In this document: positions 4,165 to 54,623 of the stretch, piece after piece
Numbering within the stretch: the stretch's first letter is position 1
Layout of the letters: each line of letters begins with the position of its first letter
Virus record (IMG/VR): IMGVR_UViG_3300028832_000110
Span: 1 to 64,000 of that record
Length of the DNA stretch: 64,000 nucleotides
Reading direction: 5' to 3' (one strand)
Origin: a virus
Taxonomy: Duplodnaviria > Caudoviricetes
The notes under the pieces: model-generated
Database searches by the model: none
What the model was told of the DNA's origin: nothing
What the model saw: the letters and a program-made list of their open reading frames with translations, nothing else
Translations under genes and position numbers: made by a program

Positions 4165-5172
4165 TCAGAACAGAGAAAGTTGACCGTCTTCACAGCCAGT
4201 TTCTATGAATAGTTTTCGGAAGATATTGGATAGAACGTCAACGGTAATGCTGTTTCCTGCCATTGCGTATTGTCTGGTTCGACTGATACCTTTGCCGTTT
4301 TCATCCCTAAAATTCTGTATTTTGTCGATGTCGTCATCACTCACCCCCTGCAACCTAAAGCATTCCCTCTCCGTCAGTTTCCTAATTCTGAACCCGGGTT
4401 CTGCAACAAACTGATCGGTGTTTCCACCGCCACCGCTGCTGCAATGAATGGTGTTGGCGACATCGTTCAAATGCCTATCCGTAACCTCGCCAGTAACGCG
4501 GTCTCTGGTATAGCCGACAATCATAGGCTCTACCAATATATTGTCTTTCTCAGCGGTTGTAATGGTGTTGCTGATGCCGTCGTTGCGAGGCTCAAATGTT
4601 CTTACGTCGTTGCGCTGTAACTTCACTTTGCCTGCTTCATAGGCTTTGCGGATTTTCTTACCGAATTCCGTGCGCTTGGGAGCAAGCACCTGCGGCTCTA
4701 TGATTTTGGGCTGCATACCACCACCATCGGTATTCAGAATGGTGGGGCAGATTCCTTCAGCACTATATACACGTCCGGGCTGCTGATTCTTGAAATCACC
4801 GCTACCTTCGCGTATGCTTCCTATCTGCAATACCCTTGCCGTCTCTTCACTCATTTCTTCATCATCAAATTCTATCACTCCAGTTGCGGCATAGCTGCCG
4901 TCACGAAAGAAGTTCTGGAAACCGTTCTTAGCATATTGGGCTTTGAGGGTACGGCACAGACCTTCATCGTCTGGATTCAATGGTTTTACAACTCTCATAT
5001 CATCTACCGTTACCCAATACAAATTACTCGTATCTACTCTTGTGGTTATGGCGACGAAGCAATCATCAATGACGTTCTGGTTATAGAGGTCGATGCACTG
5101 ACCAACCTTATTAACCCTCCCGCTTTCAAGGATCGCTTTCATCCTCACGCCGCCGGTCAATGTATCTGCCAT
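4165..5172 (-). CDS. DNA (cytosine-5) methyltransferase, C-terminal subunit (several TRD-like modules plus motifs IX-X)
   Basis: RKLTERECFRLQG (motif IX), QYAMAGNSI (motif X); repeated TRD-like units with CRTL, CPTI, SNTI, ANTI. Confidence 0.85.
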   Translation of the reverse strand: MADTLTGGVRMKAILESGRVNKVGQCIDLYNQNVIDDCFVAITTRVDTSNLYWVTVDDMRVVKPLNPDDEGLCRTLKAQYAKNGFQNFFRDGSYAATGVIEFDDEEMSEETARVLQIGSIREGSGDFKNQQPGRVYSAEGICPTILNTDGGGMQPKIIEPQVLAPKRTEFGKKIRKAYEAGKVKLQRNDVRTFEPRNDGISNTITTAEKDNILVEPMIVGYTRDRVTGEVTDRHLNDVANTIHCSSGGGGNTDQFVAEPGFRIRKLTERECFRLQGVSDDDIDKIQNFRDENGKGISRTRQYAMAGNSITVDVLSNIFRKLFIETGCEDGQLSLF

Positions 5173-5298
5173 AAACTTTTACTCCAGTATGGGGATAGTG
5201 TGCTGTATTAATCATATTTACTGCACTCGCATATTTCTCGCTTGCAGTAATGGTTACAGAACAACCATCCTTCGTAGTGTTAATCGGCTCTAAGTCAT

Positions 5299-6111
5299 CT
5301 ACTCTCCAGAGTTGGGGGGGGTATTTCCTTCTACAACGAAGTTGTCATCAACACGATTGCCAGGAGCCGTGCGGATGGTAAAAGCAACGTCATCGCCAGT
5401 CTTAGGCGTGAAGTTATGACCGTGAGACTTATCGGCATCAACACGCATGAAGTATTGAAGCATCTTGTCACTGAGGTAATACTTTTCGTCAACGTTCTTT
5501 TCCAACACGTCTTTCAACCGCTTTTCCAGAGGAAACGGCCTTGGGAAGTTGAACACTGGCTCTGGCTCACCGTCTTTCTTCAGAATGGAGATCATGAATA
5601 TGCGCTCTCGGTTCTGAGGAACACCGAACTCCTTTGTGTTTAGCACCTTTGAGAAATTGCTATATCCCCATCGGCTCAATCTGAGCTGCCAACGGATAAA
5701 GTGCTTACGGTGCTTATCACTCAGCAAGCCCTTGACATTCTCGAATAAGATGTATCGCGGACGCTTGATTTCAATGGCACGGCTACATTCCCATAGTAAT
5801 GAACTCCTTGTGCCACTACCTTCCTCACCACTTTTACCAAGTCCTGCCGCCGAAAAGTCTTGGCATGGTGGACTCATTGTAAATAGGTCAAAATCAGGCA
5901 CTTCATTCCAGTTTATCTTCGATATATCGCCATAGTTTTTGTCGGCATATTCGGGGAAAACTGCGTTGTGGGCTTGTATGGCGAAGGTATCAATTTCCGA
6001 CCATCCAACGAGTATCGACGGCACACCTGCGCGGATAAGCCCCATCATCTGAGAATCGTAGCCAGAAAAGGAAGTGAAGACTTTCAAGGGGTTGTCTTTC
6101 GTATATTTCAT
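5299..6111 (-). CDS. DNA (cytosine-5) methyltransferase, N-terminal catalytic subunit (motifs I-VIII)
   Basis: FSG (I), SPPCQDFS (IV), ENVKGL (VI), QNRERIF (VIII); motifs IX-X absent. Confidence 0.9.
   Translation of the reverse strand: MKYTKDNPLKVFTSFSGYDSQMMGLIRAGVPSILVGWSEIDTFAIQAHNAVFPEYADKNYGDISKINWNEVPDFDLFTMSPPCQDFSAAGLGKSGEEGSGTRSSLLWECSRAIEIKRPRYILFENVKGLLSDKHRKHFIRWQLRLSRWGYSNFSKVLNTKEFGVPQNRERIFMISILKKDGEPEPVFNFPRPFPLEKRLKDVLEKNVDEKYYLSDKMLQYFMRVDADKSHGHNFTPKTGDDVAFTIRTAPGNRVDDNFVVEGNTPPNSGE
5314..5321 (-). repeat. C8 homopolymer (G8 on +) just before the stop of the MTase N-subunit
   Basis: gttggggggggta; one extra C opens a 62-aa TRD-like extension ending at TGA 5126-5128. Confidence 0.75.
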
Positions 6112-6151
6112 AACGTTACATTACTATGGTAATGTTACTTTCTGCCTCACA

Positions 6152-7195
6152 CTACACGAAAAGGTCTTGTGAGACGATAATCTTTTGCTCAATAATCTTT
6201 ATGTAATCGGGATTCAGTTCAAAGCCTAAGAAGTTCCTGCCATACTTTCTTGCAACCATAGCCGTTGTACCGCTACCCATGAACGGATCAAGCACGATGC
6301 CGTCTTTCGGACAGCCTGCGAGGATGCAAGGTCTTATCAACTCTTCTGGATATACGGCGAAGTGGCTAACCTTATCGGGCTTGGTATTCACCGACCAGAC
6401 ATCGCGCTTGTTGCGCATTGGATATTGCTTATCTGGCAGTCCATCGGCACGTCTTAGGTGCATGGTGTTGGGTGTCTGACCCTTATCCTGCAAGTTCTTA
6501 AACTGCCAACGCCTACCCTCATGCCTCGCCAAATCCTCACGCTTATGGTGTGGCATTATAGGAATAATGTATTTTTCACTGCCTTTGGTCGTAAGGTCTT
6601 TGCGTCCGTCGTAACTGACAGCAGGCTCTTGGATGGCTTCGTGGTCGAAGTAATACCTATTGCTCTTTGCCATGAGGAATATGTATTCATGGCATTTGGT
6701 AAGCCTATCCGTCACGCTCTCAGGCATGGCATTGGGCTTTTCCCAAATAATATCGTTACGAAGATAGAAGCCTACCTTGTCACGAAGGGCAAAAGCGGTC
6801 ATCCAAGGCACTCCGATAAGGTCTTTGTCTTTGCAAGTGGTAACGTATTTGTAACCAGTTCGATTGCCTACCGTACCGCGATTGCTCGACTGCTTATACT
6901 TTTTGGCGTTTTCGGGATAGTTAGCTGCTCCTTTTCCAGAACCCGCGTAACTATCAGCGATATTCAGCCATAGCGTACCCTCCGGCTTCAACACCCTATA
7001 TACCTCTGCAAACACCTCAGTAAGTTTAGCAACGTACTCAGCAGGCGATTGCTCCAGTCCTATCTGACCCTCAACATTGTAGTCTCTGAGTCCGAAGTAG
7101 GGAGGTGAAGTAACGCAACAGTCTATGCAGTTGTCGGGGAGTTTCCTCAATCCAGTAAGGCAGTCTTCGTTATATACCTTATTATATATATCCAT
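6152..7195 (-). CDS. DNA N4-cytosine/N6-adenine methyltransferase, beta class
   Basis: TSPPY catalytic motif precedes DPFMGSGTT SAM-binding motif. Confidence 0.9.
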   Translation of the reverse strand: MDIYNKVYNEDCLTGLRKLPDNCIDCCVTSPPYFGLRDYNVEGQIGLEQSPAEYVAKLTEVFAEVYRVLKPEGTLWLNIADSYAGSGKGAANYPENAKKYKQSSNRGTVGNRTGYKYVTTCKDKDLIGVPWMTAFALRDKVGFYLRNDIIWEKPNAMPESVTDRLTKCHEYIFLMAKSNRYYFDHEAIQEPAVSYDGRKDLTTKGSEKYIIPIMPHHKREDLARHEGRRWQFKNLQDKGQTPNTMHLRRADGLPDKQYPMRNKRDVWSVNTKPDKVSHFAVYPEELIRPCILAGCPKDGIVLDPFMGSGTTAMVARKYGRNFLGFELNPDYIKIIEQKIIVSQDLFV

Positions 7196-54530: not shown

Positions 54531-54623
54531 GGTTTTTTCATAGTAATAAATAATTGTTTTAGGTTAGTAGTAATATTTATAGTTTTAGGTTTTTTCAGCA
54601 ACATTATAATTTTAATGTTACAG

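Follow-up and report, generated by a model that had tools for sequence, protein, structure and literature searches.

A two-gene, multi-module C5 DNA methyltransferase of a tailed phage with putative tract-length and inversion switches

Here we describe a cytosine-5 (C5) DNA methyltransferase locus on the minus strand of a 64,000-nucleotide (nt) stretch of phage DNA (hereafter, the window), which comprises the first 64 kb of the 107,405-bp Caudoviricetes record IMGVR_UViG_3300028832_000110 (completeness 99% by CheckV). The locus appears to encode a two-subunit enzyme with multiple target recognition domains (TRDs), its conserved motifs being divided between two adjacent open reading frames (ORFs), and to carry two kinds of switch, namely, a homopolymeric C tract and an invertible 5' segment. 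We place the probability of this explanation as a whole, including the functions we ascribe to its parts, at roughly 70%. Specifically, the alpha subunit (ORF1) would contribute the proximal variable region along with motifs I-VIII, five recognition modules and motifs IX-X would come from the beta subunit (ORF2), and the two together would rebuild the usual fold, as in M.AquI. Slippage at the poly-C tract would alter its length, such that a run of nine (C9) fuses a hidden sixth module, TRD0, to the end of alpha, while C8, C10, and C11 leave TRD0 untranslated. Inversion between two sites, one just upstream of and one inside ORF1, would turn the start codon and motifs I-IV around and switch the whole enzyme off, a reaction for which a 314-aa tyrosine recombinase is the candidate enzyme. 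Each module would give one target, and TRD0 would add one methylation specificity. The likely purpose is the protection of phage DNA from restriction. Methylation is of benefit against Type II enzymes but a liability against methylation-dependent ones, and it might therefore be varied at random, the switches serving as a hedge between hosts with restriction that methylation stops and hosts with restriction directed at methylated DNA.

A C5 methyltransferase divided between two genes

The motif set of a C5 methyltransferase is complete at this locus but divided between two polypeptides, as is evident both from profile matches and from direct reading, and as a first-pass annotation, made from the letters alone, had claimed. 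ORF1 matches PF00145 over profile positions 7-221 (E = 5.5e-48), corresponding to motifs I-VIII, as well as TIGR00675 (E = 4.6e-46), and the motifs FSGYDSQ, SPPCQD (with PPC at residues 81-83), FENVKG, and PQNRERIF can be read in it. It ends in a TRD-like tail (HGHNF...AFT[IV]R...RVDDN) whose residues are nearly invariant among 50 catalytic-only homologues, suggesting that alpha itself carries the proximal variable region. The C-terminus of ORF2 matches PF00145 over positions 269-322 (E = 2.1e-8), corresponding to motifs IX-X, and it matches TIGR00675 too; motif IX reads RIRKLTERECFRLQG and motif X reads GNSITVDV. Where the first-pass annotation had put the TRD-like modules of ORF2 at about five, module alignment counts five, and a sixth is encoded by the gap between the genes; all six have a T-[LI] (or I-T) core and end in hydrophobic-E. 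The glycine runs of ORF2 are coded GGT GGT GGT and GGT GGC GGT GGA, and this coding suggests that its five modules are locked on and that TRD0 alone is switchable. The likeness to the multispecific enzymes of Bacillus phages SPR and phi3T, which had also been put forward, is borne out by the tandem modules and by 31% identity between the M.SPRI gene and ORF2 residues 110-321 (tblastn). Among solved structures, ORF2 residues 62-105 match the cytosine-specific methyltransferase chains 3lx6 and 3me5 so weakly (E = 0.04-0.06) that no specificity can be predicted from them.

Judged from its homologues, the two-gene split is natural and conserved across the family. Motifs IX-X are absent from 102 of the 120 homologues that match ORF1 best (57-81% identity), most of which are 255-280 aa long and several of which represent clusters of more than 100 members; conversely, 88 of the 120 best ORF2 homologues lack motifs I-VIII. 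In L113, which at 80% identity is the closest relative on a long contig, ORF1 ends TAG TAA and the ORF2 ATG lies inside TAATG (junction, TAGTAATG), and in another (L121), the stop and start codons overlap at the same ORF1-ORF2 junction (ATGGCTGA). A separate 335-aa product is present in 11 of the 15 listed members of the 90% cluster of ORF2, the others being two 325-aa forms with a later start (one read, the other recognized by length), one 85-aa fragment, and one member of unrecorded length. The family-wide split and the overlapping codons in the closest relatives thus favor the two-subunit enzyme that had been proposed, and the homologues are mostly not single intact ORFs.

ORF1 and ORF2 share one frame, a point beyond the first-pass annotation, and three-frame translation places six stops in that frame within the gap, including the in-frame TAA (5181-5179) that had been noted and that lies two codons upstream of the ORF2 ATG. 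Because of this shared frame, one additional base at the C8 tract and one fewer near 5180-5130 would give a single open frame, and the split could be conceived as an artefact, with two homopolymer errors that cancel each other out, one at C8 and one in the A4/T3 run near 5180-5173, having interrupted a single 650-aa gene. However, both the 270-aa product and the 335-aa product turn up on many contigs across JGI, ENA, and Logan, C9 alleles stop at the same TGA and leave ORF2 separate, the overlap of the module with ORF2 (ATG 5' of the stop) is kept in two relatives (L118 and L048), and the split is the family norm. We therefore rejected such a broken gene, which we consider extremely improbable. 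The possibility that C8 itself is an assembly error, as the first-pass annotation had allowed, is likewise not borne out, since C8 is implied on at least 17 contigs from several sources.

For the divided enzyme, a predicted complex of ORF1 with ORF2 residues 190-335 supports the binding of the two subunits, with the reservation that ORF1 and ORF2 are halves of a known fold, for which a resemblance to solved single-chain enzymes may be all that the score reflects. The model scored 0.86, against 0.00 for the best of three controls; this level was attained by 58 of 80 solved complexes and by 2 of 110 mismatched pairs. The runs agreed in at least 67% of contacts, with a partner pLDDT (predicted local distance difference test) of at least 56, and in the modelled contacts, motif X meets motif I just as it does in single-chain enzymes.

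The poly-C tract and the module behind it

The C8 tract is the sole G/C run of at least seven in the 107,405-bp genome, and behind it lies a module that ORF1 would reach upon a change of frame. The 126-bp gap between ORF1 and ORF2 is open in the -1 frame only, from just 5' of the tract to a TGA. One added C extends ORF1 from 270 to 328 aa by way of a 62-aa extension that ends at this TGA and includes exactly the peptide that the first-pass annotation had quoted; the extension overlaps the ORF2 ATG by 47 nt, and ORF2 stays separate. ATG, GTG, and TTG are all absent before the TRD0 core, such that TRD0 should be reachable from ORF1 alone. In the C8 state, the ORF1 stop lies 127 nt before the ORF2 ATG while the two genes are tightly coupled in relatives without the module, so the state of the tract may also alter the translation of beta. 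The parallel that had been drawn between the hidden module and a module of ORF2 is present as a weak similarity of the former to the modules of ORF2 (~30% over 44-53 aa; pairwise E = 0.005), and the two modules that had been compared share a 23-nt DNA repeat at their ends (4872-4894 and 5176-5198; 74% identical). Modules homologous to TRD0 at 45-52% identity are found in four related loci (L046, L048, L118, and L010). In a sequence search against solved structures, the catalytic part of the 328-aa form alone aligned, with no hint of the target of TRD0. We also considered reading the TAG as a sense codon, which was rejected, as a TAA is reached 21 codons later.

Tract-length polymorphism sets whether TRD0 joins alpha, to judge from the predicted products of near-identical phages, in which the different states occur. 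The 90% cluster around ORF1 has 27 members, 15 of which were listed. Among those listed, the 270-aa form of the window, ending NTPPNSGE and implying C8 (P0001, P0122, P0129, and P0130), occurs on 17 contigs; a 328-aa form, ending NTPPQLW...DESDP and implying C9 (P0125, P0126, and P0134), occurs on nine; and a 271-aa form, ending NTPPPNSGE and implying C11 (P0131), occurs on one. Two further forms are a 263-aa product ending DDNFVKEDG, in which the module is absent (at least 28 contigs), and a 268-aa product with a different junction, ending DDNFVKVCKQEENE (P0124; five contigs). P0125 fuses ORF1 to exactly the peptide hidden in the window and is identical to P0130, a C8 form, apart from the tract state, while P0126 and P0134 carry ~9 substitutions in the hidden-module peptide and no stop. 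Both the V50 and the I50 background carry C8 and C9 forms, which suggests that the tract changed more than once or was recombined.

The slipped-strand variation that the first-pass annotation had proposed is thus upheld by C9 and C11 products beside C8 in near-identical phages. The same annotation had offered -1 slippage as a second route. Ribosomal frameshifting of this kind, or transcriptional slippage, would make the extended product from the C8 allele and place both forms of alpha in one cell, and C CCC CCC does match the X XXY YYZ slippery pattern, with the module in the -1 frame. However, the RNA 3' of the tract folds no better than shuffled sequence (z = -0.5), with no stable structure found there, and genomic C9 alleles exist, making a DNA-level switch sufficient. 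We consider this route quite unlikely; it would in any case be compatible with a two-subunit enzyme that is also switched in its DNA.

The comparison of homologues that had been set as a check reveals C runs at the same codon position in relatives, within T-P-P-(Q/R)-x-W, where the homologous module begins. In L048 and L123, the run is C9 and in frame with the module's own ATG; in L118, it is C6, and the module is fused in frame to the preceding one; L046 has C3AC5 at the tract position; and in L002 and L010, a (TC)n tract takes the place of the C run. Immediately 5' of the tract, the ORF1 frame of the window (VVEGN) can be aligned to the junction of L118, which is in frame (VLEDM...ITPQW), hence the in-frame state looks ancestral. 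An exact-pattern scan of viral contigs with the 26 nt ending at the first C of the tract gave no match.

Several observations weigh against the tract and the inversion as functional switches of a working enzyme. First, the tract lengths C9 and C11 were deduced from protein sequences alone, and variation between assemblies is polymorphism and not a within-lineage switching rate. Second, ~0.9 G/C runs of at least eight are expected by chance in 107 kb, where one was observed. Third, the nearest relatives, namely, L113, L121, and the 263-aa alleles found on at least 28 contigs, have no TRD0, which is thus dispensable. Fourth, the assignment of the recombinase discussed below rests on presence and conservation, and homologues of it also occur in distant relatives that have no sites. 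Finally, the activity of the joint alpha-beta enzyme, the distinct targets of its modules, and the working of TRD0 on alpha instead of beside motif IX are all things that we infer from sequence.

The absence of TRD0 from many near-identical phages could mean that it is a dispensable remnant, in which case the tract differences would be neutral polymorphism and the same sites would be methylated at any tract length. Consistent with this, TRD0 has lost its own start codon, while L046 and L048 keep theirs, and its placement on alpha, away from motif IX, is unusual. However, TRD0 is open over 64 codons and is still open in the second allele despite the ~9 amino acid changes (P0126 and P0134), its homologues in L046, L048, and L118 look expressed, and the in-frame C9 form is carried by nine contigs. 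Further, in M.AquI, the larger of the two subunits likewise carries part of the variable region (PMC3404938). We therefore consider a remnant rather unlikely, and a module that is switched on and off at the end of alpha remains the preferred explanation.

Repeat tracts are also concentrated in the methyltransferase genes of the wider family. Across 27 related loci, G/C runs of at least seven together with dinucleotide repeats reach 1.2 per kb in methyltransferase/TRD arrays versus 0.18 per kb in flanks (63 versus 27 tracts; binomial p = 7e-18). The frame is kept by 29 and broken by 38 of 70 array tracts, which is close to the expectation for freely drifting three-state switches. One locus (L052) has 14 tracts within 3.5 kb, many of them coding GGG right after the TRD core.

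The organization of the arrays differs further among these relatives. In L002 (3570-4650) and L010 (2300-3700), every TRD is its own mini-ORF ending (V/I)YETE-stop, the stop overlapping the start that follows (ATGAAACAGAAT) within a direct repeat of 20-26 nt, with a +1 frame shift at most junctions and long (TC)n and C8-C10 tracts at module starts. In L121, an 81%-identical relative, a G10 tract (2263-2272) with a frame break lies in the N-terminal module of ORF2, suggesting that beta can be tract-gated in close relatives. The catalytic subunit of some relatives is interrupted by ~960 nt (L052 and L133; 3729-4037 and 5001-5567), and one homologue (P0046) carries the intein/Hint families PF07591, PF13403, and PF14890, which suggests an intein in the alpha subunit.

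Inversion sites at three methyltransferase genes

Beyond what the first-pass annotation had described, the 5' third of ORF1 lies between inverted copies of an 18-bp site, ACATTA-N6-TAATGT, which forms three inverted pairs in the genome, each with exactly complementary spacers (Table 1). The C5 segment (5785-6135, sites included) contains the ORF1 start codon and motifs I-IV, and the other two pairs flank the start of a neighboring N6/N4 (hereafter, N6) DNA methyltransferase gene and the whole of a third methyltransferase gene. The window holds five copies of the site pattern (allowing at most one mismatch) versus 0.22 expected. In eight related loci (L002, L008, L009, L010, L011, L013, L113, and L121), the spacers differ from those of the window yet match within each pair.

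For the C5 and N6 segments, both orientations are found in nature. A 98%-identical copy (P0054) is flipped at the C5 gene, with a plus-strand ORF (5968-6132) fused to ORF1 between LLW and EC, and in the 81%-identical L121, codons 1-111 are inverted with the same breakpoint, while in L002 and L010, codons 1-69 are inverted between their own sites. For the N6 gene, flipped-state products of 164 aa (P0156 and P0164) occur in near-identical phages, and the segment was assembled flipped in L010. The combinations C5-on/N6-flipped and C5-flipped/N6-on both appear to occur, going by matching lengths of the longest contigs of the listed proteins.

Within the genome, we found two tyrosine recombinases and no serine recombinase. 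The candidate invertase is the 314-aa tyrosine recombinase (genome 100550-101494), which is kept in the phages of L002 (80%) and L010 (49%). Neither the same sites nor any 14-nt inverted repeat around the start was found in 20 more distant relatives, suggesting that the C5 flip switch is confined to a close clade.

Taken together, the two kinds of switch may make this phage a layered combinatorial switchboard. One recombinase would flip three methyltransferase fronts independently by way of shared 6-bp arms and gene-specific 6-bp spacers, slippage would toggle one module of the C5 enzyme, and in relatives the design would extend to as many as 14 tracts in one TRD array, such that the progeny of one lineage differ in methylation and hedge among hosts. 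We regard this extended picture as an even bet.

Further copies of ACATTA-N6-TAATGT, either without a clear partner or with AT-only spacers, lie at 116-133 and 54601-54618 in the window and at 80881-80898 and 81249-81266 in the genome.

Relation to known systems and genome setting

The division of motifs resembles that in M.AquI of Agmenellum quadruplicatum (Karreman & de Waard 1990, as given in PMC3404938), whose larger subunit carries motifs I-VIII plus a proximal variable region and whose smaller subunit carries the distal region plus motifs IX-X, likewise from two adjacent genes. Unlike M.AquI as described there, the beta subunit herein would have five tandem modules, the genes are those of a phage, and a tract-dependent extra module would join alpha, all of which is known here from sequence. 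The tandem TRDs between motifs VIII and IX, and the presumed self-protection from host restriction, recall the multispecific C5 methyltransferases of Bacillus phages, M.SPRI, M.Phi3TI, M.Rho11sI, and M.H2I (Wilke 1988, Gunthert & Reiners 1987, and Lange 1991, in PMC8936443). The latter, however, are single polypeptides for which no repeat tract or inversion is described, and their host phylum differs. Given that the window enzyme lies on two ORFs, we describe it as working like the SPR/phi3T family and do not file it as a member.

With respect to switching, simple-sequence repeats turn whole bacterial Type III or Type I enzymes on and off in phasevarions (Srikhanta 2010, in PMC9881135; PMC7383803). 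As there, a homopolymer in a coding region resets the frame, and tract lengths vary between near-identical genomes; unlike the phasevarions treated in those accounts, the tract herein would act on a Type II-like C5 enzyme of a phage, in which a single recognition module comes or goes and the rest stays intact. The inversion sites resemble the partial intergenic and intragenic invertons of gut Bacteroidales (Chanin et al., PMC10028968) and other gene-altering programmed inversions (PMC9881135), in that short inverted repeats lie one just 5' of the start and the other inside the gene, both orientations occur in nature, and a tyrosine recombinase is likely involved. They differ in being phage-borne and in that the 6-bp arms are common to three methyltransferase genes, each of which has 6-bp spacers of its own; the word methyltransferase is absent from PMC10028968. 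A literature search turned up no account of repeat-tract or inversion switches in a multi-TRD C5 methyltransferase of a phage. Each feature alone is known, and what appears to be new is the combination of a split C5 enzyme, tandem modules, a tract, and inversion switches in one phage locus. Also distinctive, it seems, are the fused and largely locked array, of which a single module, on alpha, can be switched, and the sharing of one site family by three methyltransferase genes.

Phase-variable methyltransferases are well studied in bacterial pathogens, where they act as population-level epigenetic switches, while the textbook view of phage methyltransferases is one of fixed self-protection. The locus described herein suggests that a phage population probably varies which of its DNA sequences are marked. 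If the modules confer distinct specificities, phage populations would diversify their methylation patterns at random. This would matter for host range and for the contest between phages and Type II and Type IV restriction, as well as for how the methylomes of phages and prophages are read in metagenomes. It would also offer a natural set of plug-in recognition modules for the engineering of C5 methyltransferases.

Table 1. Features of the methyltransferase region and of the inversion sites (window positions unless marked as genome positions)
Feature	Position	Strand	Basis or remark
DnaB-like helicase	8942-7527	minus	
MazG-like gene	7526-7218	minus	
N6/N4 DNA methyltransferase, 347 aa	7195-6152	minus	PF01555, E = 1e-54
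N6 methyltransferase inversion sites, spacers TTCCTA / TAGGAA	7201-7218 and 6553-6570		flank start and first ~210 codons
Upstream C5 inversion site, ACATTACTATGGTAATGT (plus strand)	6118-6135		7 nt before ORF1 ATG
C5 methyltransferase locus (ORF1 and ORF2)	6111-4165	minus	
ORF1, catalytic (alpha) subunit, 270 aa in C8 state, motifs I-VIII	5299-6111	minus	PF00145, TIGR00675
Downstream C5 inversion site inside ORF1, codons S-L-L-W-E-C, spacer CCATAG	5785-5802		complements upstream spacer exactly
C8 tract (G8 on plus strand), putative frame switch between ORF1 and hidden module	5314-5321	minus	direct reading
Hidden module TRD0, 64 open codons in -1 frame and TGA (5128-5126)	5126-5320	minus	translation; homologous modules
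ORF2, beta subunit, 335 aa, five tandem TRD-like modules, then motifs IX and X	4165-5172	minus	
Small predicted membrane protein, 134 aa	4139-3735	minus	
Third pair of inversion sites, spacers TGGAAG / CTTCCA	genome 106474-107248 (sites at 106474 and 107231; locus L193 7474-8248)		outside window
Third methyltransferase, 250 aa, DPPY motif	genome 107243-106491		wholly between third site pair

Along the minus strand, the genes follow one another in the order helicase, MazG-like gene, N6 methyltransferase, C5 locus, and membrane protein. Scans for sigma-70 promoters and terminators were uninformative, and distant blastn comparison with an annotated phage collection returned nothing beyond one 71-nt match. 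The 134-aa membrane protein directly 3' of the methyltransferase locus has no match in a Pfam search; it is found at the same position in L002 and, apparently, in L010 and L113.

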